Shown: piece after piece, positions 3,333 through 24,000 of the stretch | How the letters are laid out: each line of letters begins with the position of its first letter | Position numbering within the stretch: the stretch's first letter is position 1 | Origin: Cuspidothrix issatschenkoi CHARLIE-1 | GTDB taxonomy: Bacteria; Cyanobacteriota; Cyanobacteriia; Cyanobacteriales; Nostocaceae | Direction of reading: 5' to 3' | DNA length: 24,000 bases | Assembly: GCF_002934005.1 (NCBI RefSeq) | Contig: NZ_PGEM01000095.1 | Coordinates: forward strand, 1,137 to 25,136 | Notes under the pieces: model-generated | Told to the model about the DNA's origin: nothing | The model's database searches: none | The model's input: only the letters and a program-made list of their open reading frames with translations | Made by a program: the position numbers and the translations under genes

Positions 3333-6300
3333 ATGAAAACCGTATTACCTGATAGCAAAATACTGCTGCAAGCAGTTCATCAAAAATCCTTAGTCCAATG
3401 GATAAGCCAAGCAACGGGTATCGATACTTTCGGCATCAAAGTACAGTTACTAGGTAATGACCTGCATATTCTATGTGAAAGTGCTGAGTGTCCAGAACAT
3501 TGGCAAACTGTGTTAGGGTTATTACAAGCTATACAGCAAACTGATGTGGATACCCTCACTAATGACGAGCAACCCTCCATCTATCAAATATTAGTTTACG
3601 GACGGAAAAAAGGAGAACATCACCCAGAATGGTATCATCGAGTTTCCTTGCATCAAGTAGAGCAACATTTAGAACAGGTAGAATCTGTTCTATCAACTCA
3701 AGCAGATGTCAAGAAAATCCCTAGTGGCTCTCTGATTATCTCTAATGAAAGTTTGGCACGCCAAGGTGATATAGATGCTATTGCTCGCTATCTCAGTGAA
3801 CATCTCAGTCATTTAGGTGTGGCTGTTCAGGTAAAAATTAGCCAATGTCCTAGCAAAACTAATCCACAAATTATCGTTAATCGCCTTTGGGTATTGTGTC
3901 AGTCTAGTTATAGTCCCGATCCATCATTGTTGGCGGAAACAGTAGCCCAAAAGCTGAGACATTTAAAACTGGTGGGCTATCAAGATGGTGTTCTAGTTTC
4001 TCAGGTACGGGGAGAAACAGAGCCAGATTGGCGGATGTGGGTAGATTTAACACCGCCAGAGGTAATGTTAAAAGAATGGGCGCGGTGGGGAGATTTACAA
4101 GCGATCGCCAAAATATTATCAGTAGAATTACTAGGCTTTAAAATCGCCGTTCAAACTTCCCTCAAAGAATCTACCCTGCATATATTCTGTACTCCAGCCT
4201 TTGATCTTCTCGGATCGTCCCCTGCACCAGATCAAGAAACTGCTATCAAGACCATTGTTCCCTTATTAGACACCATCGCCCCCCAAGCAATTCTTTCAGT
4301 AGCTATATATGGACAGAAAACAGGTGATAAACAACCTGCTTGGATAGATTGGGTCTCTTTACCCGCATCTCAACATCCAAATTTAGCTACATCTGCTTTG
4401 GATCTTGCCCGTGCAGGTGACAACAGTGCAATTATATTTCTACTAGAGCGTTTACTCAATCCTGATCTGGATTGGCGATTGAAAACAGGTGGTATCCGGG
4501 TATTGGTAGTCCGCAAAGAAAATTTGTTACACATCATGTGTGATGCTCCTGTTTGTCCTACACGCCATCAAGTTTCTAACAAAGTGACTCAATTTATCCG
4601 CCAGTTGAAAATTTACCGGATTAGTGGTATACGTATTTATGGCCGTCGTGCAGGAGATAAAGAACCTGTATGGCATCATGGTGTTGATTTAGAACAACGC
4701 GCTCAATTAGTTCCTGAAGCTACACCAGAATTTGCCGCTACATCTAAATATATAAATTCTCTAGTGATAAATGAAACCAGTAAAACAATTTTACGTCCTT
4801 ATTTAACAAATGAGGAAGTAAACAATTTTGACAAAGAACTCGCAAAAAAATGGGTGGCAAATACCAACCAACTAATCAAAAAGTTACTTTTAAATAGCCA
4901 ATTATTTACAGAAGTCCATCAGGACAATGAGCAAAATCCTGAGCATCAAGGAATTGGTGGTGGTCTGATTTGGCTGGGATTAGGATTACTGCTCACATTG
5001 CAAAATGATTTAATGTTAGGCTATGTTGCTGCCCATACTCTGAAAAATTCACCGAAAACTACTACAGTTTCCAGTGTGTCGTCAGAATCTGAAGCATCTT
5101 TCCCTGTGGAATATCAGGAAAAAACACCTCTATTAAATCAGCCAAAAACAACGGGCTTTTCTAAAACAGATTCTACTTTTAATGCTTCTGGATTTATTAA
5201 TGATGCAGGAGCGTCGAAAAATTTACGAGCTGCACCATTAAAAGAAAAAGCTACATCTACAGCAATTTTATTGGCAGCGCGTTCACAAATGCCAACTTTT
5301 AATGCTCGCCAATTAGATGAGCAATTAGCCCTATATAAACAACGTTTAGCAATTAAAAAACGTCCTCCAGATGTCCTAATTATTGGTTCTTCTCGCGCAT
5401 TGCGAGGAGTTGATCCTGTGGCTCTTTCTAAAGCTTTAGTCAGCCAAGGTAATCGTAATATTGATGTATTTAATTTTGGTATTAATGGTGCAACTGCCCA
5501 AGTCATTGACGTAATTATCCGTTACGTTTTAGAGCCTCAAGAATTACCAAAATTGATTTTGTGGGCTGATGGTTCCCGTGCTTTTAATAATGGTAGAGAA
5601 GATGTCACTTTTAATGCCGTCGAATCATCACCAGGATACAAACAGATAATACAGAAAGCAACCACACAAATCAAACCTGATCAAGTTCCTAAAAATCCAG
5701 AAAAAACACCCGACAAAATCAATACTGAAATTGCTAAGGCAGATGTTAGCTTTTATCAAATAGGTAATGATCGGCTAAATGAAGTTGTCGCTAATTTATC
5801 TGCTAGTTATAAAAACCGTGATCAAATTAAAGCCCTGCTGCAAAAACAACTTAAATATCTCCCTGTTAGTTCTGAAGATATCCAAAAAAAATTAAATACT
5901 GATGTTACTTATAACTCTAAAATAGATAATAATTCTTCTATTGTTGGAGTTGATTTTGATGGATTTTTACCTTTATCTATTCGTTATAATCCCAAAACTT
6001 ACTATCAAAAACACCCTAAAGTTTCTGGAGATTATGACAATGATTATAAATCTTTCCAACTGTCAGGTAAGCAAGATCAGGCATTTCAATCAGTTTTAGA
6101 GTTTACCAAAAAAAATAATATTTCTCTCGTTTTTGTGAATATGCCTCTGACTTCAGAATATTTAGATCCTGTCCGCACAAAATATGAACAGCAGTTCCAA
6201 GCGTACTTATTGAACTTTACCAATAGTTCTCACTTTATATATTGTGATTTCAGTCAGTTATGGCCAACAATCAATGATTACTTTTCTGATCCCAGTCACC

Positions 6301-9530: not shown

Positions 9531-9564
9531 TAATTAGAGCTTTTTAATAAGCTTAATTAACAAG

Positions 9565-9599
9565 AAACGCCCTCCAGAAATGGGGGGTGTTTTTGTTTG
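9565..9599 (+). terminator. Rho-independent terminator after psbA, shared with the convergent minus-strand operon
   Basis: AAACGCCCTCC (9565-9575), loop AGAAAT, GGGGGGTGTTT (9582-9592) form an 11-bp stem (two G-U pairs) followed by TTGTTTG. The minus-strand gene ends at 9615, so the hairpin sits between convergent genes. Confidence 0.75.
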
Positions 9600-9614
9600 A
9601 TCAAGAAAAAAGTG

Positions 9615-10310
9615 CTACTGTACACCAACTGCTCTGCCTTCGGAACTAAAAATAATGGGACTCTCAGGCGTTTTTGGTTCCCAACCCACATCAAAACCCG
9701 CTTTCCAGGCAATTTCTCTAACTTGACGAAAAGTAGCAAAACTATCGGGTCTGACCAAAAATGCTAAATAATCTTTCTGAGGTGCAAATTGAGATAAAGT
9801 TCTCCGATATTCAGAATTAACTTGAGTTAGTTCTTTACCTGATTCTCCACTATTAACTGACTTAGGGTTATATTGCCACGCACCAGAATCTAAATCAACT
9901 AATTCAACTTCATAGTTTTTTGTTTCTACTAGCAACTCCTTTAACTGTTGTAATTTATGTTCCATACAACTTTGATAATTTCTTAATTCATCAAGATAAC
10001 TGTCAATAAATCCCGAAATATAACTAGGTCTAACACAAGTAGGTAAATTACCAAGAAATTCTTTAATTTGTTGATCAGCCGATTCAGTATCTAAGTAAAT
10101 AACTCGATTATCAGTAATTTCAAAAAAGTTTGGTTTTTTATTAGTTTCCTTTGCCAGTGGAGTCCTGACTATTGTACTCGATTGCACAGCTACTAAAGTA
10201 ATAAACAGACTCATAAACATTAATACCCCAACAGTATTAGTTAAAATATCCAAGAAGGAATCTAGATTTTGTTGGGGGCGCTGAGATGCAAAATAACGTT
10301 TTCTTTTCAT
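9615..10310 (-). CDS. ExbD/TolR-like single-pass membrane protein (paralog 2, with ~100-aa insertion), retains the TM Asp
   Basis: The listed ORF start at 10406 is a TTG. An ATG at 10310 (MKRKRYFASQRPQQNLDSFLDILTNTVGVLMFMSLFITLVAV) gives a basic N-terminus plus TM, 19 nt after the upstream stop. FLDIL aligns with the ExbD/TolR IDVMLVLL proton-relay Asp. The C-terminus YLAFLVRPDSFATFRQVREIAWKAGFDVGWEP is paralogous to the upstream gene. Confidence 0.6.
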   Translation of the reverse strand: MKRKRYFASQRPQQNLDSFLDILTNTVGVLMFMSLFITLVAVQSSTIVRTPLAKETNKKPNFFEITDNRVIYLDTESADQQIKEFLGNLPTCVRPSYISGFIDSYLDELRNYQSCMEHKLQQLKELLVETKNYEVELVDLDSGAWQYNPKSVNSGESGKELTQVNSEYRRTLSQFAPQKDYLAFLVRPDSFATFRQVREIAWKAGFDVGWEPKTPESPIIFSSEGRAVGVQ

Positions 10311-10329
10311 ATTTATACCAATATTATTT

Positions 10330-10791
10330 TTAAATGTTTCCTTGGATTTTGAGTTGCCATCCTTCGTCAATAGGTTCATAACCAATATCAATTCCTTCAG
10401 ACTCAATTAATGCTCTGATTGTTTTAAATACTTCAATACCATCAGGGCGAATTGCGACGATTAGATATTGTTTATCTCGATTAGTTTTGACCTCTGTTAA
10501 TAAAGTTTGTAATGGAGAATAGGAACTGTTAACTCGAGTTATAGCTACAAATTCTTGGTTAGGATAGAGAACAATCCCATCACTACGGCATTCAATATAA
10601 CGGGGTTGTTTACTCTGATTTTGTCCATTCTCTGTTTTAGCAACAATAGTAATTTGTCTTTGATTGCTAAATGTTTGAGCAGTCAGAACCATCAGTAATA
10701 AAATAAGTACACCTATGGTACAAAATAAAATTGAAAGAAAAGGGAATAATTCAACTTCCGTAACAGCACCATTGCTAATTCTTCTTGGCAT
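10330..10791 (-). CDS. ExbD/TolR-like single-pass membrane protein (paralog 1), TM Asp replaced
   Basis: The listed start at 10821 is a TTG that overlaps the upstream gene. An ATG at 10791 (MPRRISNG...) lies 4 nt after the upstream TAA. TM segment LFPFLSILFCTIGVLILLLMVL. The periplasmic part IECRSDGIVLYP...QYLIVAIRPDGIEVFKTIRALIESEGIDIGYEP fits the ExbD fold pattern. Confidence 0.6.
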   Translation of the reverse strand: MPRRISNGAVTEVELFPFLSILFCTIGVLILLLMVLTAQTFSNQRQITIVAKTENGQNQSKQPRYIECRSDGIVLYPNQEFVAITRVNSSYSPLQTLLTEVKTNRDKQYLIVAIRPDGIEVFKTIRALIESEGIDIGYEPIDEGWQLKIQGNI

Positions 10792-10795
10792 AAAT

Positions 10796-12196
10796 TTATG
10801 AACGCTTTTCTTCAGATTCAACTAATGTAATCCGTCGCGGTTTATTCAGTTGTTCTAATGCTGGTCTTAATAATGCAAGATTTGCACCCACTTCTCCTAA
10901 TACCTGTTCTAATTGTGCTGTTTTTTCTAATGTGTGTAAACCCTGTTCTAAACTATCCTGAAATTCGACAATCCTCGCTACCTGAGCAGCACAATTCTCT
11001 AAGGCTGCAATCCGACTATCTAAAGCCATTGCTGCTTTCTGGAGTCCTTGAGAAATTTGTTCTGTGTGCGCTGTGAAATTATGATTAACGTTTTGGTAAT
11101 TATCTTGAATTGCCTGACTAATTTGTTGAATCTCTTGGATAATTTCTTGACTGGATTTTTCTTGCTGGGCTAATGTATTAACAAAAATTTCCCTATCTTT
11201 AACAGCCATTTGATTGATATAACTCATGTGCTGTATCAATTTATTGGTCGTTCCTTGGATTTTTTCTACCTCAGTTAAAAACCCCTGAGTTAAAGCTTCT
11301 GCGGCCTGTTTAGCATATTCTTGGGCAGGTTGAATTAATACTTCTGGTGTTGGAAGATGTTTCTTAAATGCCTGGGATATAGCATCATTAACTAGGGCTT
11401 TATTGAAGTTCTCGGTTTCTTTGAGACGAGGTAATATTTTGTCATTGATATAAATATCAATTGCCAGTAGTAGCCGTGATTCTTGTCTTTCTACTAATAC
11501 CAAAGGAATCATCACTAATACGCTAACAAATAACGCTAGAAGTGTTGTATCAAATGCTACTGCTAATCCACTGGTAACAGTTCCAATGCCCTGCTTAATT
11601 TGTTCAATATCACTGGATTGCTGTAAGAATCCACTAAAACCATTGACCGCACCACTAATACCAACAACTGTACCGATAAATCCCAAGAGGGGAATTGCCC
11701 AGACTAAAATACGAGCTACGGAATAGGAGGTTTCTGCGGTGCTGCTGTAAAATGCCGAGTCTTCCATTGCACATTCAGTAGCCGTTTGGCGATTTCCTGA
11801 GACTATATATGCTGCAATCACCCGACTACAACGACGAGCTAATAAGCTTTTTTCCTTAATTAAAGACTGTCGAATTTGTTCTAATTGCAGAGATCTAAAA
11901 TTTTCAAATGAAATAGTGTCAGGAATTAAATCCTTGTTAAATGCCCTTAATTCACTCTGAATTTTGATCACCTTGAGAATAGTAATAGTTACTACCATAC
12001 CGCCAAAAAATATGGCGAGAATTTGGGTAAATCCCCGTTCATATAACAGAGTACCTAAAAATGTATTTTTAATGGGGAATACCGCAGCATAGATGCCAAA
12101 GGTAACTATTAATCCTATGCTTAAAATAAGCCAAAGTTTGATATCTAATTCTCGGCGGTCTGATTTACCAGGTAAGTTAAGATATTTTGCCGTCAT
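10796..12196 (-). CDS. MotA/TolQ/ExbB-family proton-channel protein with a ~225-aa C-terminal coiled-coil tail
   Basis: ATG start. Four TM segments: aa ~20-40, 57-77, 163-185, 210-236. Signature helices VWAIPLLGFIGTVVGISGAVNGF and GLAVAFDTTLLALFVSVLVMIPLVLV. Residues 241-466 are Q/E/A-rich with a heptad-like helical pattern (for example QEIIQEIQQISQAIQDNYQNV). Confidence 0.85.
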   Translation of the reverse strand: MTAKYLNLPGKSDRRELDIKLWLILSIGLIVTFGIYAAVFPIKNTFLGTLLYERGFTQILAIFFGGMVVTITILKVIKIQSELRAFNKDLIPDTISFENFRSLQLEQIRQSLIKEKSLLARRCSRVIAAYIVSGNRQTATECAMEDSAFYSSTAETSYSVARILVWAIPLLGFIGTVVGISGAVNGFSGFLQQSSDIEQIKQGIGTVTSGLAVAFDTTLLALFVSVLVMIPLVLVERQESRLLLAIDIYINDKILPRLKETENFNKALVNDAISQAFKKHLPTPEVLIQPAQEYAKQAAEALTQGFLTEVEKIQGTTNKLIQHMSYINQMAVKDREIFVNTLAQQEKSSQEIIQEIQQISQAIQDNYQNVNHNFTAHTEQISQGLQKAAMALDSRIAALENCAAQVARIVEFQDSLEQGLHTLEKTAQLEQVLGEVGANLALLRPALEQLNKPRRITLVESEEKRS

Positions 12197-12279
12197 AATT
12201 TTTAGATATTTGTTGATTCTCAGTTTTGTGTGTTTTAGTGTCTGGGGCTATCACTCGCTAATTAAACATCAAGAAATAG

Positions 12280-13797
12280 TTAATTTGCATTTTCCAGATA
12301 GTTTAATCCCCACTGATACAAAGAACGCATCAATAAGTTATTCAAATTCGGAGGAGTGCTGATTTCTTTGAGTACATCAATCATCAAGTTTTTAATGTTT
12401 TCTGAAGTTGTTGGTATATATACACCTGAAAAGTTATTATTAGCCCAGATATTACCAATTTTTGTTGAAGTTATAGATTCCCCCTTATGAATAATTTCGT
12501 TGCGCTTTATTCTAATAGCCTTTAACAATTTTGACCATTTATTATCTTGGTGAATTTTTTTGTATAAACACCAACCTTGCATTAATTCTGCTAGACTTGG
12601 TTCATCTTTATTACTTACTATCCAACCTTTAGCAGTCCAATTTTGGGCTGTTGATTGAATATATAATAACCGTTCTAAAATTTGCACAAACTGAATAAAT
12701 GCAGTAGTGTAATTTTCTCGTTTTAGAGAAAGTTCTAAGATGATTGTTGATTCCCAAAGTTTGCTAAGATCATCAGCTTGCATTTTTTGGAGTTTGGTTT
12801 TCCAATTTTCAATTTGTGCAGAATCAACTACATTAGTAACATCATCATTATTTAACCATTTTTCCAATTTGCGGTAAAAATCATGATTAGATTCCCAATT
12901 ATTATATTTTGCTAAAAAACCAGCTAATTTATATAATACTGAATGACGACTTTCATGAACTTTTAGCCAAATTTGGGCTTCTGAAAAATCACCTCTTTCC
13001 CAAGCTGATTTAATCTTTACCTTTTCTAACGCCCAGAAATATTCACTCATAGTAATAGCTTGAAAACTCTGGGAGTGATTAGCAGTAACTAAACCATTTT
13101 CTAAAGTAGTAAAAAATTCCTTTGGTTCATCGGGACTAGCATTAAATACTTGATATTGACGTACTAAAGCGGCTGCACAAATTTCTACATTAGAAGCAAT
13201 TACAGGGGTACATCCTTTAGTTTGAATCCAGAGAATAAATTCTTGATTTTTGTTAGCATTGATAGCTTCTTTTAAAACCAGTTGTTCTAATTCTTCTCGA
13301 ATTTCATCACTATTACCAGCGTTAATTTTTGGGGCGTGAACATCAACTCTGACATCAGGAAATAAACTTTTAATTTTTCCCTTCATTAATTCTGCTAACC
13401 ATAAAGTATCTAATCGGCGAAAATTCCAGGTAATACTTTCCGGTTGGTCTGTTCCCCATAGGATAATATGTTTTAAACCTTGTTTTACTCCTCCTTCAAT
13501 GACAGTTTTATCTAACAATAATTCGACATTACTAAAATCACCGCCTAACCATTCTTGACAGTAATCATAATATCTTTTACCTAAATCTCGACCACTCCAA
13601 GGATAGGTTTTACCATCTTCATCTTGATGTTTATCCCGTTCTATTCCTAGTTCTTGATAGAGTTCGTTGATATGTGGAGGATAACTAATATTACCATCTG
13701 CACCAAAGGAACGGATAACACCATCTTTACACCGCCATCCTATTTGTCTAGTTCCTACAGTGATGATGAGGGTGCTAACTTGATTTGTTGTTTTCAT
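12280..13797 (-). CDS. CARF-domain / HEPN-domain type III ancillary RNase candidate (Csx1/Csm6-like), paralog B
   Basis: ATG start. N-terminal strand STLIITVGTRQ, then LWGTDQ, then IQTKGCTPVIAS, a Rossmann-like CARF pattern. The C-terminal helical domain carries RNEIIH (R-x4-H HEPN motif, nt 12487-12504). It lies immediately downstream of the cmr operon. Confidence 0.7.
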   Translation of the reverse strand: MKTTNQVSTLIITVGTRQIGWRCKDGVIRSFGADGNISYPPHINELYQELGIERDKHQDEDGKTYPWSGRDLGKRYYDYCQEWLGGDFSNVELLLDKTVIEGGVKQGLKHIILWGTDQPESITWNFRRLDTLWLAELMKGKIKSLFPDVRVDVHAPKINAGNSDEIREELEQLVLKEAINANKNQEFILWIQTKGCTPVIASNVEICAAALVRQYQVFNASPDEPKEFFTTLENGLVTANHSQSFQAITMSEYFWALEKVKIKSAWERGDFSEAQIWLKVHESRHSVLYKLAGFLAKYNNWESNHDFYRKLEKWLNNDDVTNVVDSAQIENWKTKLQKMQADDLSKLWESTIILELSLKRENYTTAFIQFVQILERLLYIQSTAQNWTAKGWIVSNKDEPSLAELMQGWCLYKKIHQDNKWSKLLKAIRIKRNEIIHKGESITSTKIGNIWANNNFSGVYIPTTSENIKNLMIDVLKEISTPPNLNNLLMRSLYQWGLNYLENAN

Positions 13798-13814: not shown

Positions 13815-15284
13815 TTAATTAATTTTGATTTCTTGGGTTTTGAGAGTGGCTATAACTTCAGTATGCATTTGAGCAAATAAACTAGCTTTATATAGGGTAT
13901 TAAATGATTTTCCAGTGACTAAATTAATGCAATTTAAAATCCTTTTTTGCCATTGTTGTGAGTTGATTACATCCTCACCCCAAGCGATAAAAACATCTTG
14001 TTCTGCTAAACCACCTAAGCGATGAGAAAAATTATTTCTGGTGTTTCTTGCAGATTCCCAAAATGCTTGAAAATCAATATTATTTGTAGTTTGAGGAATA
14101 GCAATATTTAATAAGTCTTCCAATAACCATCCTTGTAAATTTACTTCTGTTCTGCGGTCTGGTCTGTAAAAATGTCTTTTTAAAGATGAATATTTTTGCA
14201 AAATAGAATCTTTAATTAATGGATATTGATTTTTTCTTTCTTCAATATGATTAGGAAAAGAATCAGCAGCCCACCAATATAATAGACCTTCAATAGCTCG
14301 ATAACTGTGTAACATTGCTTCTGTAGTATTCATCTGTTTCAGACGAATTACACCTAAATAAGCTTGTTCATAAGCCATCCATAATCTGCCTTCTACACTA
14401 GATATTTGTGTATAATTTCTAGCAAGAGATAAGAATCCTTCAAATTGTCCTTGATTCCATAATTTACCAGCTTTTAATAAATCAGGTATTGTTCCAAAAT
14501 TAGCAGATGGTTGTTGAAAATAAGGTTCTAGTAAATCATAAGCTTCTGTATAGTCATAGCTTTCTAATAATTTTAAAGCCTGTTTTTGGGTTCTATCCCA
14601 AAGATAGTTAGTACCTAAAAATGGACCACTATAATCTGATGGGATACCATTACGATTTGCGCGTGTATTTTCCTTAAATTCAAAGAACTGAATGCGATCG
14701 CCATAAAAACTAAGCCCTGAAATCCTTGCTGCTTCAGAAGTTTGACCTACCCCTCCTTTCAAACATACCCAAACAGACTGATTTTTATTAACAGTGATTG
14801 TATTTTTCCAAATTTTTCGCCACCAATTGAACATATCTTCAAAAATTGAGGGATTAGTACCATCTTGACCTAGTAAAATAATATGAACATTATTATTATG
14901 AAGATGACTAAATTTGTGCATCAGCCATTGTTTAATTAGTTCGGCTGAATATAATGTATCTTTTTCTCTTTGTGTGACATTTTTTTCCTGATCAGTAGCT
15001 ATCAAATAAACTTTTTTAATGTTTGATACTTGTTCAATAAACATCTTACCAATAATTGGCGGTTGGATGCGATCTACATATTTTTCAATATTATCTAATA
15101 GGTATTTAGTTAAATGACGAAAATTTGTATTATCCTTTAAACCCAAATCAGAAATTACTTCTAATTGTTCAGCAATAATTTCTCCATTTTGGACTCTATC
15201 ATTACCAATATTGAACCATGCACCAGAGGCAATTTGGAACATTAAATCTCTAGTGCCAATTGTGGCGATTAAAACTGATTTCAT
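13815..15284 (-). CDS. CARF-domain / HEPN-domain type III ancillary RNase candidate (Csx1/Csm6-like), paralog A
   Basis: ATG start. MKSVLIATIGTRD, LIATDQ and CLKGGVGQTSEA form a CARF-like pattern. The C-terminal RNNFSH (R-x4-H, nt 14022-14039) sits in the context ARNTRNNFSHRLGG. It starts 39 nt after the cmr6::cmr1 stop. Confidence 0.7.
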   Translation of the reverse strand: MKSVLIATIGTRDLMFQIASGAWFNIGNDRVQNGEIIAEQLEVISDLGLKDNTNFRHLTKYLLDNIEKYVDRIQPPIIGKMFIEQVSNIKKVYLIATDQEKNVTQREKDTLYSAELIKQWLMHKFSHLHNNNVHIILLGQDGTNPSIFEDMFNWWRKIWKNTITVNKNQSVWVCLKGGVGQTSEAARISGLSFYGDRIQFFEFKENTRANRNGIPSDYSGPFLGTNYLWDRTQKQALKLLESYDYTEAYDLLEPYFQQPSANFGTIPDLLKAGKLWNQGQFEGFLSLARNYTQISSVEGRLWMAYEQAYLGVIRLKQMNTTEAMLHSYRAIEGLLYWWAADSFPNHIEERKNQYPLIKDSILQKYSSLKRHFYRPDRRTEVNLQGWLLEDLLNIAIPQTTNNIDFQAFWESARNTRNNFSHRLGGLAEQDVFIAWGEDVINSQQWQKRILNCINLVTGKSFNTLYKASLFAQMHTEVIATLKTQEIKIN

Positions 15285-15323: not shown

Positions 15324-17054
15324 TTAAATTTCTGCTGGAGGTTGTACACCAAATAAATGTACATTACCATTCATGTTTCCTAAATCACGGAGAAAGCGCG
15401 ATCGCACATGAGTGGCATTTGGTGTTTGTCCACCCATAAATAAACAAACAATTTCTTGACAGTCGGTTTTTTCCTTTTGGTTGGGAATATTTATCCGTTT
15501 AATACTTGCCCAAGAACAATGTCCATTTCCTCCACCCGCTGCATTACCACCTAAATCTGGATTACGCTTATAATTTCGTGGGTGATTCTGATGATAAATT
15601 AAATACATTCCATCTCCACGAGTTGCTTCAGCATCATCTCTCTGATTCCATTTAATCGAAGATGTTTCTATAGGGTTGACATCAGGACCAGGAACTACAT
15701 AAATTGCACAGGTGGTAGGTGAAAAAACTTCTGCTTTGATATTACGGTTATTTGTTGATACTCTATCCTGCCAATGATTTCTTGCTTCTGTAACCCAATC
15801 ACTATAAGTTTTTGTCCAAGTTGTTGTATCAAGAGGTAAACCGAAGTTTTTAGATTTCAGTTCACCACTGTTTTGATCTTTTAATTTATGAGTCAATATT
15901 AACTGTGTTCCTCTAGAAGCTGCTCGACCAGTATTCATGTTAAATATATGTAATGGTCTACGCCAACCCCGACCAACACCGCCAACCATGACTGCAAAAC
16001 GAATTATTGGCAAAATGATTTTATTGAGGATATCTTTTGGTGCGCTAATTTGTAATTTACCTTTCCATAGATAAAAAAATGGTTGATTCTCAGACCTTTC
16101 TCCCCATGTTTTACCTTGAATCATTTGCAGACGTACACAACCTTTGCGACTCTTCCCATCTCCTGCATCTATCTCTCCCATCAGTTCAGCAACAGTCAAT
16201 TTAGCGAGATTTTCCGGCATTACTCCCAAGAAAAACCGCATTAACCAAGAGCGCAGCCAACCCCGCCAATGTGAAGGACGTAATTCCATTGTTTGAGTAT
16301 GTGGACCTGCGCTACCTTGACTATAAAGGCTAAATTCAAATTGTTTGACAGCATGGCCAGGATCAAGGGTAGGAGTTTGTGAAGAACTGGAAGTTTTTAA
16401 ACCGCCATATCCAGAAGCAGTACGACTACCAACACCATATAAACCTAGTGCCTGTTGCACCCATTCCCAAACCTCGTTTACTTCCTCTTCTGTAGCTTTT
16501 CCTGGTATTCCTCTCATTGCAACTATCACAGCAATTCTATCTTTACCATTACCTAAAGTATAAAGAGATAATGGTGTACATTGTCCCTGATGATATACCT
16601 GAAATTCTTGTTGAGGATTAACAATATCTAAACTTAATTTAGTTGCCGTTTCTGGCCAAGCATCAAGAAATTCAATTTTCCCAGCAGTAATTTTATCATT
16701 GTCTTGATGCCCTAAAAGCTGGTACATTCTTGGTTTAATTTCTGGTCTTTGTTTTGCCCATGCTCTTACTAAACCTCGGATACAAGAACCTGGAATATAA
16801 CCATGTAAAGGTAAATTTTTCAATGTTTCCCAATTTTGACTAACATTCCGTTTATCTTCTGGTCGTCCTTGATTTGGCCTCCACGCACCACAGGGTTCAC
16901 CAGCAGAAACTATAGTTTCTACATCTGGATGGGGAAATGAACCAACTTTAGCACGCCATTGAATCGTAAAAGTGTCTTTTTTAAATAAGCCAGATTGCGA
17001 TCGCTTTTGATGTTGCTTTTCCAGTAAATTAATTAATTCAATACCTGTATACAT
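15324..17054 (-). CDS. cmr6: Fused RAMP protein: N-terminal Cmr6-like module plus C-terminal Cmr1-like module
   Basis: The track start at 17090 is a TTG. An ATG at 17054 is preceded by AGGAGG at a 5-nt spacing and overlaps the cmr5 stop as TAATG. N-terminal module: YIPGSCIRGLVRAWA, IEFLDAWP, LSLDIVNPQ, GVGSRTASGYGGL (Cmr6 pattern). A Ser-rich linker follows (TSSSSQTPTLDP). C-terminal module: MELRPSHWRGWLRSWLMRFFLG and VGGVGRGWRRP (Cmr1-type pattern and G-rich loop). Confidence 0.8.
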   Translation of the reverse strand: MYTGIELINLLEKQHQKRSQSGLFKKDTFTIQWRAKVGSFPHPDVETIVSAGEPCGAWRPNQGRPEDKRNVSQNWETLKNLPLHGYIPGSCIRGLVRAWAKQRPEIKPRMYQLLGHQDNDKITAGKIEFLDAWPETATKLSLDIVNPQQEFQVYHQGQCTPLSLYTLGNGKDRIAVIVAMRGIPGKATEEEVNEVWEWVQQALGLYGVGSRTASGYGGLKTSSSSQTPTLDPGHAVKQFEFSLYSQGSAGPHTQTMELRPSHWRGWLRSWLMRFFLGVMPENLAKLTVAELMGEIDAGDGKSRKGCVRLQMIQGKTWGERSENQPFFYLWKGKLQISAPKDILNKIILPIIRFAVMVGGVGRGWRRPLHIFNMNTGRAASRGTQLILTHKLKDQNSGELKSKNFGLPLDTTTWTKTYSDWVTEARNHWQDRVSTNNRNIKAEVFSPTTCAIYVVPGPDVNPIETSSIKWNQRDDAEATRGDGMYLIYHQNHPRNYKRNPDLGGNAAGGGNGHCSWASIKRINIPNQKEKTDCQEIVCLFMGGQTPNATHVRSRFLRDLGNMNGNVHLFGVQPPAEI

Positions 17055-17584
17055 TAATCCTCCTGATAGGCTCTTGCCCAAAAATTCCAATGGTTAGCTA
17101 ATAACAAAGATTTCCGCCAAGTCAACATATATTCTTGAGGCCGGTTTCTAGTCATCTCTACTATTTGTGTCATTAATTCTTCTTTATTAGGTAGTTGATT
17201 TTTATCTACCGCTACCATCTGACCTAGTAATGATTCCCACACTGGTACAGTACGTTTTCGCACCTCATTATTATCCTGAGCATTTGCTTGATTCAGATAT
17301 CCAACCGCAGACAGTAGACCAAAAACTCTTAAATGTTGAGACAATCTTAAAACAGCAGTTAAATCATTTTTATCTAACTTCTGTTTGTTGTATATTTTCA
17401 AATACTTTTGAATATGTTCGTGAGCAGATAAACTCATTTGTTCTGGTAAAACTAGAGAGGAGTTATTATCGCTCCTAACAGTTTCGACCTTCACATTTTC
17501 AGAAAGACTTGGAGGTTTTGCTGTAATACTTGATTCCGGTTTTGGAGGATTAGATTTAGGTGGATACTTCTTATTTTTAGACAT
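17054..17584 (-). CDS. cmr5: Type III-B small subunit Cmr5-like, with a Pro/Ser/Lys-rich N-terminal extension
   Basis: ATG start. It sits between cmr4 and cmr6. It is an all-helical small protein with LRLSQHLRVFGLLSAVGYLNQ, resembling the Cmr5 core helix. The call rests on position plus weak motif similarity. Confidence 0.6.
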   Translation of the reverse strand: MSKNKKYPPKSNPPKPESSITAKPPSLSENVKVETVRSDNNSSLVLPEQMSLSAHEHIQKYLKIYNKQKLDKNDLTAVLRLSQHLRVFGLLSAVGYLNQANAQDNNEVRKRTVPVWESLLGQMVAVDKNQLPNKEELMTQIVEMTRNRPQEYMLTWRKSLLLANHWNFWARAYQED

Positions 17585-17598
17585 AATTTTATATTCCT

Positions 17599-22641
<5,043 letters not shown>

Positions 22642-22898: not shown

Positions 22899-23096
22899 TG
22901 GTTATGTAGTTAATATCCCCAGCGAGTGGGAACCCAACGTAACACAGGCATCTTGCCTGTAAATCCTAAGTTTCCATTCAATTAATATGACATTTGCGAT
23001 CATTAATGAAGATCCCGGACTTCTTAGAGAAGTCCGGGATCTGTGGTTTTCATTCAATACGTTTCCATTCAATTAATATCCCCAGCGAGTGGGGAC
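22899..23096 (-). CRISPR. Decayed CRISPR mini-array: one intact 36-nt repeat, one 3'-half repeat, one degenerate terminal repeat
   Basis: On the minus strand the intact repeat GTCCCCACTCGCTGGGGATATTAATTGAATGGAAAC spans 23096-23061. It has a CCCCA/TGGGG stem and a GGAAAC end typical of type III/Cas6 repeats. The 3' half ATATTAATTGAATGGAAAC recurs at 22988-22970. A degenerate copy GTTCCCACTCGCTGGGGATATTAACTACATAACCA lies at 22933-22899. The orientation matches the cas genes, about 260 bp upstream of cas10. Confidence 0.55.
23011..23041. repeat. Perfect 13-bp-stem palindromic hairpin element (GATCCCGGACTTC-TTAGA-GAAGTCCGGGATC) inside the array remnant
   Basis: The palindrome is read directly from the sequence. 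This sequence type resembles small hairpin repeats common in Nostocales genomes. It occupies the 72-nt interval where a ~36-nt spacer plus the missing 5' half of a repeat would be expected. Confidence 0.7.
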
Positions 23097-23229
23097 ACTA
23101 TACTAACAGAGACATCTTGCCCACCGAGGGGAGAGGCAACCCCTTTTTCTCAGAATCCCTATAGAGTCCATAATAAGACTTAGAGACACAAGAATAGACT
23201 TATGATGACACTTAAAGTCTTTCATGAGA

Positions 23230-24000
23230 CTAGAATCGACGCACACCGGAAGTGCAATTGCTGTCAGGGATGACTTGGGAGGGAACCCGGGTAAAGGTGG
23301 TACAAACTGCGGGATTCGGACCAAATGCTCTTTGGAAGGTGTAGGCGGCACAGGGACGGGATTCTGTTCCCGATGACGTAAATCGAGCGGGATCACTACA
23401 AGCCAGTTGGCATCCACTTTCATTAAAGGGTACCTCGGACGGCCAATATGGGTAGCGGTAGGGATCGCCACCCATATTATTAAGGATGGCATCTGCCGCA
23501 CCATCAAAACGCCCCGGAATGGAATCATAGCCCCTTGAAGTTTGGGCGGGGGATACGGGGTCTGTCGAACCAATAACCCCTGAAACACAGCATGGGTTCG
23601 GTGTTTCCGGAGGAGCTGGGGTTTTAAGGTAACATACGGGTTGGGGACCCTGGTAACCCGCCCTTACGAAGGTATAAGCCCGACAGCGACCCCGATCACT
23701 TAAACAAGCCAATGCACAATCACGGGGAGTCGTGGCGGGGGAGATGACACGATAGTCACTGCCATAGCGGTCTACCCCGTCAACCTGACTAATTGGAGGT
23801 AATCGATAGGATGGGTCTAATAAAATATTCGGGTCAATCCTATCCGGAATCAATGGATTAATCTGGCTAATGGGAAGGGACTTCTTTTCAAGTAACCCAG
23901 TTGTGCGGCTTCCCCCGCCTTCGGCTTGGGATGGTTGTGCCAGTGAGGGGACTAGCATTAAACCCACCATTAATAATGGGGCGATCGCGATTCGTACCAT
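23230..24000 (-). CDS. Secreted protein with two PAN/Apple-like Cys-patterned modules; start codon at the last three bases of the window
   Basis: The ATG is at 23998-24000 and the ORF may extend beyond the window. Signal-peptide-like N-terminus: MVRIAIAPLLMVGLMLVPSLAQPSQA. Two modules have a C..AC....C.AYTF......C pattern: RDCALACLSDRGRCRAYTFVRAG...PVCYLK and SGCQLACSD...RPCAAYTFQRAFGPNPAVCTTF. The gene is markedly GC-richer than its neighbours. Confidence 0.7.
   Translation of the reverse strand: MVRIAIAPLLMVGLMLVPSLAQPSQAEGGGSRTTGLLEKKSLPISQINPLIPDRIDPNILLDPSYRLPPISQVDGVDRYGSDYRVISPATTPRDCALACLSDRGRCRAYTFVRAGYQGPQPVCYLKTPAPPETPNPCCVSGVIGSTDPVSPAQTSRGYDSIPGRFDGAADAILNNMGGDPYRYPYWPSEVPFNESGCQLACSDPARFTSSGTESRPCAAYTFQRAFGPNPAVCTTFTRVPSQVIPDSNCTSGVRRF

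Follow-up and report, generated by a model that had tools for sequence, protein, structure and literature searches.

Organization of the locus

In this study, we analyzed a stretch of 24,000 nucleotides (nt) from the cyanobacterium Cuspidothrix issatschenkoi CHARLIE-1 (contig NZ_PGEM01000095.1, positions 1,137 to 25,136 of the forward strand), hereafter called the window, in which genes for a MotA/TolQ/ExbB-type channel protein and two small membrane proteins lie directly behind a type III-B CRISPR module. We refer to these three genes as the cassette. On the minus strand, an unbroken co-oriented array runs from cas10/cmr2 to CARF-HEPN_b and then into the cassette (Table 1). The identity of the type III-B/CARF-HEPN module, which had been proposed in an original prediction made from the sequence alone, was borne out by Pfam matches to Cmr2_N, Cas10 palm2, Cmr3 and RAMP families and by two PADLOC matches to CARF1--CARF_HEPN (2e-250 and 1.2e-136). 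The two CARF-HEPN genes (Csx1/Csm6-type) are the terminal genes of this module; they are neighbors of the cassette and do not belong to it. The coordinates of the open reading frames (ORFs) agreed with the predicted junction, i.e. the end of the second CARF-HEPN gene at 12280 and the start of the next gene 83 nt further on the same strand. The TTG starts in the ORF listing were over-extended for both small genes, and the ATG starts used instead reproduced the predicted gaps of 4 and 19 nt. The channel protein was 100% identical to an NCBI entry from C. issatschenkoi. In addition, a Pfam scan of the window detected no TonB, TolA, OmpA/MotB or TonB-dependent receptor, which is what the prediction had said about energy transducers, peptidoglycan anchors and receptors.

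The 83-nt spacer had been described as free of a hairpin followed by a U-run. A terminator consensus scan of this spacer indeed found no site, and its RNA appeared unstructured (minimum free energy (MFE) -7.1 kcal/mol, z +0.51). No conserved promoter motif was present in the gap 5' of the channel gene in an alignment of eight close loci, and the spacer sequence was poorly conserved among relatives. A hairpin with a U-rich tract follows the last cassette gene, where the consensus scan also placed a terminator-like site on the plus strand (9570-9587); this hairpin is a probable bidirectional terminator common to the cassette and the convergent psbA. Since the genes are co-oriented, the 83-nt gap lacks a hairpin and a terminator-like hairpin occurs only after the last cassette gene, co-transcription is plausible, and on this sequence evidence the cassette is probably transcribed together with the cmr operon by read-through. 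An antisense ORF of 89 amino acids (aa) across the junction (12093-12362, plus strand) was judged spurious; it was common only to one locus of 90% identity (L002).

Table 1. Features of the cassette, the type III-B module and the array remnant in the window
Feature	Position	Strand	Remarks
Channel gene, 466 aa	10796-12196	-	ATG at 12196
Small gene 1, 153 aa	10330-10791	-	ATG at 10791, 4 nt after the channel gene
Small gene 2, 231 aa	9615-10310	-	ATG at 10310, 19 nt after the 153-aa gene
Spacer between CARF-HEPN_b and channel gene, 83 nt	12197-12279	-	no terminator, no convincing promoter; homology breakpoint between loci with and without the cassette
Hairpin and U-rich tract	9552-9605	-	just 3' of the last cassette gene; MFE -20.3 kcal/mol, z -2.72
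CARF-HEPN_b	12280-13797	-	PADLOC; stop codon ends at 12280
CARF-HEPN_a	13815-15284	-	PADLOC
cmr6/1-like RAMP	15324-17090	-	Pfam RAMP
cmr5-like	17054-17584	-	
cmr4	17599-18474	-	Pfam RAMP
cmr3	18467-19639	-	Pfam Cas_Cmr3
cas10/cmr2	19639-22641	-	Pfam Cmr2_N, Cas10 palm2; GGDD motif in translation
Degenerate CRISPR array remnant	22910-23096	-	one full 36-nt repeat and two half repeats; between cas10 and the PAN-domain gene

Features of the cassette proteins

The channel protein, whose gene is labelled "MotA/TolQ/ExbB proton channel family protein" in databases, matched the Pfam model MotA_ExbB (PF01618) over residues 132-236 (8e-8, 32.5 bits, cut-off 22.9). Hydropathy analysis revealed four hydrophobic segments (17-43, 55-80, 159-185 and 206-238), with a cytoplasmic loop at ~80-158 between the second and third transmembrane (TM) segments. 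The last 226 aa form a tail rich in Q, E, A and L (11.5% Q and 9.7% E). The AlphaFold model was all-helical, with one uninterrupted helix at residues 284-425 and a predicted local distance difference test (pLDDT) score of 67. Pfam, hydropathy, composition and AlphaFold thus agree with the predicted 4-TM protein bearing a Q/E-rich helical tail of about 225 aa. A conserved KPRRITLVE motif closes the tail, and the family alignment showed that the channel was conserved end to end, including the tail and this motif.

A profile search of the channel against PDB sequences returned coiled-coil look-alikes only, such as syntaxin and Mediator, and was therefore uninformative, so that a fold comparison was needed. 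Using Foldseek, we found that the channel model matched ZorA, MotA, ExbB and TolQ, all with a probability of ~1.0. The lowest E-value was obtained for ZorA (8qyh, 8vvn) but the best template modeling score (TM-score) for TolQ (0.66), and the channel model thus cannot assign a subfamily. By sequence model, an assignment to ZorA was rejected: the match to the NCBIfam antiphage model ZorA_2 was full-length but weak (1.7e-8), with 33.9 bits against a cut-off of 100, and the PADLOC ZorA models gave E-values of merely 1e-4 to 1e-5. Pfam and Foldseek together place the channel subunit in the MotA/ExbB/TolQ/ZorA stator superfamily. The likeness in architecture to Zorya that had been pointed out earlier, a long-tailed MotA homolog with a small TM partner, holds, given the Foldseek match to ZorA and the 226-aa tail.

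The two small proteins, whose relatives are labelled hypothetical proteins or ExbD in databases, each contain one TM segment by hydropathy and are paralogs (BLASTP 2e-9; one BLAST cluster). Neither gave a match in Pfam, NCBIfam or PADLOC searches, and a profile search of the 153-aa protein against PDB sequences yielded nothing meaningful. The Pfam ExbD model did not match the 153-aa protein, whose predicted fold is TolR/ExbD-like: the AlphaFold model (pLDDT 79) matched TolR (5by4, probability 0.99) and the periplasmic domain of ExbD (8p9r, probability 0.96, TM-score 0.68). The anticipated pair of paralogous single-pass ExbD/TolR-like proteins was thereby recovered, with the fold seen for the 153-aa member. 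In this protein, a Ser (Ser20) takes the place of the Asp that binds the proton in ExbD/TolR (86 of 88 homologs). The TM helix of the 231-aa protein carries Asp21, invariant in 81 of 81 homologs and embedded in an invariant N-L-D-S-F-L-D21-I-L-T-N motif; we take Asp21 to align with the position of ExbD D25 and TolR D23. The 231-aa protein also has a periplasmic insert of ~80 aa relative to its paralog.

Distribution of the cassette family in cyanobacteria

A species-level scan (one genome per species) found 129 relatives, of which 80 loci were kept. The cassette was present in at least 129 cyanobacterial species-level genomes; all 129 relatives came from cyanobacteria-labelled or obviously mis-binned records, and the family is restricted to cyanobacteria. 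A scan of viral contigs with the channel profile found no relatives. The order of the channel gene and small genes 1 and 2 was kept in ~75 of the 80 loci, the cassette consisting of these three genes, and no conserved fourth defense gene was found across the 80. Clustering of 1,226 flanking ORFs revealed nothing else syntenic except a LapA-domain (PF06305) ORF of about 75 aa downstream in 19 loci. This ORF lies on the same strand just 3' of the third gene (for example, L075 12612-12866); the 19 loci include records labelled Pleurocapsa, Waterburya and Xenococcaceae, and the window clade has no such ORF. A 6.9-kb contig (L115) had a stand-alone homolog of the 153-aa protein (5450-5923, 66% identity) beside a radical-SAM gene and a dTDP-rhamnose operon, with no channel gene. 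In Cronbergia sp. UHCC 0137 (L088), detectable channel sequence was limited to the C-terminal ~208 aa (806-1429), upstream of intact small genes and with NERD-UvrD helicase and nuclease genes adjoining; this may be a disrupted cassette.

All ORFs of the loci were then compared by phmmer with a panel of Cas proteins comprising both cmr variants described below, cas1, cas2, csx18, the Cylindrospermopsis cas10 and Cas_APE2256. The panel matched only L002, L004, L005 and the window. Together with L001, whose contig holds only the 3' end of a CARF-HEPN gene, Cas relatives adjoin 4 of the 80 cassettes, and the remaining 76 had no detectable Cas relative in the flanks examined; upstream sequence of at least 2 kb was available at 57 loci outside the close clade, defined here as the Nostocales channel proteins at least 75% identical to that of the window. 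A comparison of this kind, counting cassette homologs near cas or CARF genes, had been suggested as a check on the link to type III systems, and its outcome goes against such a link across the family. The proteins of Cas-linked and Cas-free family members were alike in length and motifs. In the bulk of the family (~50% identity), the immediate neighbors were ordinary genes for histidine kinases, an ABC-class ATPase, M16 peptidases and oxidoreductases. PADLOC matches among 238 immediate neighbors were few, mostly generic kinase, Uma2 or TnpB similarities, and neither TonB, TolA nor a TonB-dependent receptor was among the 25 commonest Pfam families of these 238 flanking proteins. The competing explanation that had been offered alongside the proposed link, a conserved cyanobacterial three-gene cluster, is largely the better reading. 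It does not extend to a cluster common to the Nostocales: the cassette is absent from most of them and occurs as patchy island or plasmid cargo.

The housekeeping neighbors of most family members, the general lack of cas genes next to them, the best superpositions with TolQ and TolR/ExbD and the labels ExbB/TolQ and ExbD given to relatives by JGI and UniRef would all suit a plain ExbB-ExbD paralog set, like Synechocystis exbB/exbD3/exbD4, that energizes TonB-dependent or envelope uptake (iron, for example) and whose place beside the CRISPR operon is an accident of genome arrangement in one lineage. In Synechocystis, the ExbB-like gene and two hypothetical genes sll0477-sll0478-sll0479 form one transcription unit that was 6.7-fold up under iron starvation (PMC4195498), and they have been called exbB/exbD3/exbD4 (PMC8634477). 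However, membership of sll0477-0479 in the cassette family could not be verified by sequence, and Synechocystis was absent among the matches listed (the best 120 in each of three homolog searches). Other observations also argue against this explanation. Neither small protein matched the Pfam ExbD model, and the channel is a 4-TM protein with a cytoplasmic tail of 226 aa, features that Ton/Tol motors do not have. The usual partners TonB, TolA and TonB-dependent receptors were found neither in the window nor among the commonest neighbor families. With the E. coli consensus, the only one used, Fur-box-like sites showed no excess upstream of 76 cassettes (mean best match 11.29/19, compared with 11.32 for control genes). 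Finally, the patchy occurrence, plasmid copies, cross-order transfer and sibling-strain presence/absence described below would be unusual for a core uptake function. On balance, we consider a plain uptake energizer unlikely, though it deserves to be taken seriously; if it were correct, the cytoplasmic tail would need a new explanation.

Linkage of the cassette to the type III-B module

In the close clade, CARF-HEPN_b was located directly upstream of the channel gene in 11 loci of one Nostocales subclade. The junction was recorded in the window, its metagenomic twin L098, L001, L002, L004 and L005, as well as in A. cylindrica PCC 7122 plasmid pANACY.03, two Sphaerospermopsis assemblies, L089, L090 and L110. 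The taxa involved are Cuspidothrix, Dolichospermum/Anabaena, Sphaerospermopsis, A. cylindrica (on the plasmid) and Richelia sinica FACHB-800, and both chromosomes and plasmid pANACY.03 carry it. To this extent the suspected linkage stood up, as the junction recurs and is more than a one-off arrangement. In Sphaerospermopsis, the gap between CARF-HEPN_b and the channel gene was widened to 262-376 nt.

The type III-B module itself was variable. Two versions of the genes cmr4-cmr5-cmr6 occur, with just 23-35% identity between the window (15324-18474) and L081 (5224-8393), L087 and L089, while cas10, cmr3 and CARF-HEPN_b remain at 72-90% identity, and the two Sphaerospermopsis assemblies carry different versions. 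This is a modular exchange inside the operon. In several loci with the alternative cmr4-6, CARF-HEPN_a was missing, and cas10, cmr3 and the CARF-HEPN_b-channel junction were kept.

Presence/absence comparisons revealed that module and cassette can be separated. First, ten metagenomic loci containing CARF-HEPN_b at 80-93% identity were informative, and the cassette was found in L098 only. The other nine run from CARF-HEPN_b straight into housekeeping genes, either Fe-ADH/ABC transporter/MutS2, an amidase, or ctpA-petB and behind it an ORF of 160 aa regarded as petD. In blastn comparisons of the window with these nine Cas-only loci, homology stopped where CARF-HEPN_b ends, in its stop codon (12277-12279). 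The flanks on both sides are common to L001 and L099 (94% nt identity downstream), which differ by a segment of 3.08 kb holding exactly the three cassette genes. Second, five close cassettes had no Cas module (L003, L006, L007, L113 and L091/URU6). In L091/URU6, a 24-aa cas10 fragment (L091 279-350) lies 70 nt upstream of an intact cassette, whose downstream flank is common to the Cas-bearing L089. A truncated CARF-HEPN_b of 106 aa was also observed in L005 (9628-9948), again with an intact cassette; this short gene and the cas10 fragment of L091 are decay scars. The close clade thus comprises 11 loci with Cas and 5 without, beside 9 Cas modules without cassette. Because the association breaks in both directions, the cassette and the type III-B module form two separate units, often but not necessarily side by side.

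The original prediction had raised the idea that the cassette is a type III accessory effector. As such an accessory arm, its expression would come from the cmr operon and its activation would occur in the course of interference, triggered via the CARF-HEPN proteins or an unrecognized binding site for cyclic oligoadenylate (cOA) in the tail or loop, and its output could be dissipation of the proton gradient or an envelope-damage signal, comparable to Cam1, Csx23 and CorA. The operon-like placement behind the CARF-HEPN genes (same strand, 83-nt gap, no terminator) is compatible with this possibility, as are the 11 junction loci, in which the downstream flanks differ and cmr4-6 may be swapped for the version of 23-35% identity, and the diverged cassette of Cylindrospermopsis, with type III-B remnants and a Cas_APE2256 protein still no more than ~10 kb away. 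However, searches of the three cassette proteins with Pfam, NCBIfam and PADLOC showed no known sensor domain, CARF and SAVED included, nor did the predicted models, which are all-helical for the channel and TolR-like for the 153-aa partner. The tail is simply one long helix, and family members in genomes without nearby cas genes have the same length and motifs. Moreover, nine near-identical type III-B modules do without the cassette, and cassettes have remained intact where the Cas module was lost. The widened gap in Sphaerospermopsis points in the same direction, and the position of L107 beside divergently oriented type I-like cas genes (Cas6, Cas3-like helicase) suggests a general affinity for defense islands. 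In the literature searched, no publication connected ExbB or MotA to CARF proteins or to accessory genes of type III systems. With no detectable Cas relative at 76 of 80 loci, 9 of 10 CARF-HEPN_b loci without cassette and no sensor domain, the idea of an accessory effector is not supported, and we regard it as improbable. If it were true, it would provide a first example of a stator of the rotary-motor type serving as an accessory arm of CRISPR. What our results chiefly offer the CRISPR field is negative: a striking operon-like adjacency proved separable in both directions.

Mobility and genomic context of the cassette

In the neighbor-joining tree, the sister group of the window clade holds Cylindrospermopsis raciborskii and a plasmid copy from Microcystis aeruginosa. 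The channels of the C. raciborskii chromosome (L092) and M. aeruginosa NIES-2481 plasmid p1 (L085) are 88% identical; identity among the cassettes of other lineages compared was ~45-53%. Such identity across two cyanobacterial orders indicates that the cassette was transferred horizontally, and recently, from one bloom-forming genus to another. Plasmid copies are found on Microcystis NIES-2481 plasmid p1 and A. cylindrica pANACY.03 (matched by tblastn as record NC_019773).

The neighbors of the cassette in this branch were as follows. On pANACY.03, they are csx18-cas1-cas2, a WYL protein, viperin and a deoxynucleoside kinase. On Microcystis plasmid p1, we found a type IIG restriction-modification enzyme, a cyclase and a 2TM effector of a cyclic oligonucleotide-based antiphage signaling system (CBASS), an HKD+Snf2 helicase, DUF559, NUDIX, HNH and GIY-YIG proteins and an integrase. 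L089 and URU6 both contain type IIG restriction-modification and the HKD+Snf2 helicase, with KilA-N/BstA domains in URU6. In Cylindrospermopsis, the type III-B remnants and the Cas_APE2256 protein are accompanied by HicAB and a GmrSD/NsnA-type protein. L113 has an HNH endonuclease and a resolvase, and L007, a basal member of the clade, lies among housekeeping genes. These contexts, including the type I-like cas genes of L107, fit a cassette that is accessory cargo of islands and has an affinity for defense islands in general; they show no specific type III tie. One branch of the family thus represents mobile defense-island or plasmid cargo in the bloom-formers Cuspidothrix, Dolichospermum, Sphaerospermopsis, Cylindrospermopsis and Microcystis.

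Two further gene groups were observed near the cassette. The type IIG enzyme and the HKD(PLD)+Snf2 helicase (PADLOC C3a139/DrmD-like) occur on opposite sides of the cassette in L085 (1521-9851) and L089 (11811-20462), and the helicase was near the cassette in two contexts only. A DUF559 gene and a 181-aa gene directly follow the cassette in L085 (12669-13951) and L107 (12723-14008), whose upstream contexts differ; the 181-aa gene is annotated as NUDIX in L085 and has no Pfam match in L107. In the Microcystis/Cylindrospermopsis-type branch, these two genes may make an extended five-gene unit with the cassette.

Proposed function of the cassette

We lean towards an explanation in which the cassette is an autonomous, horizontally mobile, ion-driven stator-type motor that is an island neighbor of the CRISPR operon and no cOA-controlled effector. 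The latter part follows from the lack of a sensor domain and from the same length and motifs seen in family members far from cas genes. By analogy with the superfamily, we infer that five copies of the 4-TM MotA/ExbB-like subunit would surround a dimer of the ExbD/TolR-like proteins. This dimer would most likely be a heterodimer of the 153-aa and 231-aa paralogs, as suggested by their strict co-occurrence with Asp in only one of them. The protonatable Asp21 would then be supplied by the 231-aa protein alone, and proton flow through it would turn the pentamer. The periplasmic TolR/ExbD-fold domains could tether the complex to an envelope partner, while the five 226-aa tails may bundle into a ZorA-like cytoplasmic shaft of ~20 nm, so that the output would be directed into the cytoplasm. 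The working principle would thus be closest to that of ZorAB, with TolR/ExbD-like periplasmic parts. At the 3' edge of the type III-B/CARF-HEPN island, the cassette would be a separate cargo, expressed by cmr read-through, yet neither cOA-controlled nor CRISPR-dependent.

As to its role under this explanation, an independent Zorya-like defense or envelope-surveillance function in the Nostocales/Microcystis branch is one tentative suggestion, and a role as an envelope or uptake energizer is another, of roughly equal weight. Should the cassette turn out to protect against cyanophage, whether by itself or in combination with type III-B, the Zorya principle would be extended, with consequences for bloom ecology.

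Several points weigh against our preferred explanation. Across the 11 junction loci, six or more different downstream flanks were seen, as was the internal cmr4-cmr6 swap, and a junction kept through such changes makes selection for linkage possible to some degree. Moreover, about three quarters of the family reside among housekeeping genes, without defense enrichment. The cassette contains no effector gene, leaving a Zorya-like output without an obvious target. Finally, the channel model is of modest confidence (pLDDT 67), the structure models are of monomers only, and the proposed stoichiometry and rotation draw on distant homologs only.

Seen within the superfamily, three features of this stator are unusual: a tail like that of ZorA, partners of the TolR/ExbD type where Zorya has a ZorB-type one, and a pair of paralogs with Asp in one and Ser in the other. 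Our literature search found no publication describing a cyanobacterial ZorA-like cassette and, to our knowledge, ZorA alone among 5:2 ion-driven motors has a long cytoplasmic tail. The cassette, with its obligatory one-Asp pair of partners, is therefore an uncharacterized design in a well-studied motor superfamily.

Other features of the window

The remaining ORFs of the window encode a Uma2 protein, a DUF1574/DltD-like protein, an MBOAT protein, psbA and a PAN-domain protein. No cas6, cas1 or cas2 was found in the window. The full 36-nt repeat of the array remnant reads GTCCCCACTCGCTGGGGATATTAATTGAATGGAAAC (23096-23061, minus strand), and the half repeats comprise a 3' half at 22988-22970 and a 5' half at 22933-22910. 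A listed ORF at 23103-23588 overlaps the array-remnant region and looks spurious. The last part of the window (23001-24000) has a GC content of 50%, compared with ~35% in the rest, and a probable secreted PAN/Apple-domain protein (23230-24000, minus strand) runs off its end. The Uma2-family gene (744-1550) contains a 21-nt tandem repeat of about seven copies (1342-1518) that encodes an A/E/K-rich tract in the C-terminal part of the protein, and a pair of 44-nt direct repeats was located at 536-579 and 627-670.

Comparison with known systems

We compared the cassette with the systems that it resembles. Like Zorya ZorA/ZorB, it combines a MotA-like 4-TM channel bearing a long helical cytoplasmic tail with a small single-pass partner; ZorA gave the lowest Foldseek E-value, ZorA hidden Markov models matched weakly over the full length, and one branch of the family resides in defense islands. 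However, the tail is ~226 aa in a protein of 466 aa, whereas the matched ZorA profiles span 383-1,063 positions and tail deletions in the solved ZorA constructs extend as far as residue 729, and the score of 33.9 bits falls far below the ZorA cut-off of 100. Furthermore, the cassette has two different partners rather than one; they are of the TolR/ExbD fold (as seen in the 153-aa model), with no match to an OmpA-type peptidoglycan-binding domain in Pfam or PADLOC. It has no zorC/D/E-type effector, and most family members are found outside defense islands.

With the Ton (ExbB-ExbD) and Tol (TolQ-TolR) motors, the cassette shares the Pfam MotA_ExbB domain, the best TM-score (TolQ, 0.66), the TolR/ExbD periplasmic fold and an Asp in the TM helix of the 231-aa protein. 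Differences include an extra N-terminal TM segment in the channel (four compared with three) and the 226-aa tail, the unmatched Pfam ExbD model, the absence of the Asp from one of the two partners, and the lack of TonB, TolA, Pal or a TonB-dependent receptor near the cassette. Synechocystis sll0477-sll0479 is alike in outline, with an ExbB-like gene followed by two hypothetical genes; its iron induction has no counterpart at the cassettes, where no Fur-box signal was seen with the E. coli consensus.

Membrane proteins are also known among type III accessory effectors. A nucleotide-sensor domain is present in Cam1 and Csx23, CorA is accompanied by dedicated partner enzymes, and all of them track type III loci. 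The cassette is similar to them as a membrane protein set at the end of a type III operon beside CARF proteins, but no sensor was found in it and it occurs mostly without type III. Finally, the Myxococcus gliding motor AglR-AglQ-AglS consists of one TolQ/MotA-like and two different TolR-like subunits encoded together, of which AglR has no long tail. By this description, one channel with two TolR-like subunits is common to both systems, whereas evidence of homology does not go beyond the superfamily and no gliding-complex genes are found near the cassette.

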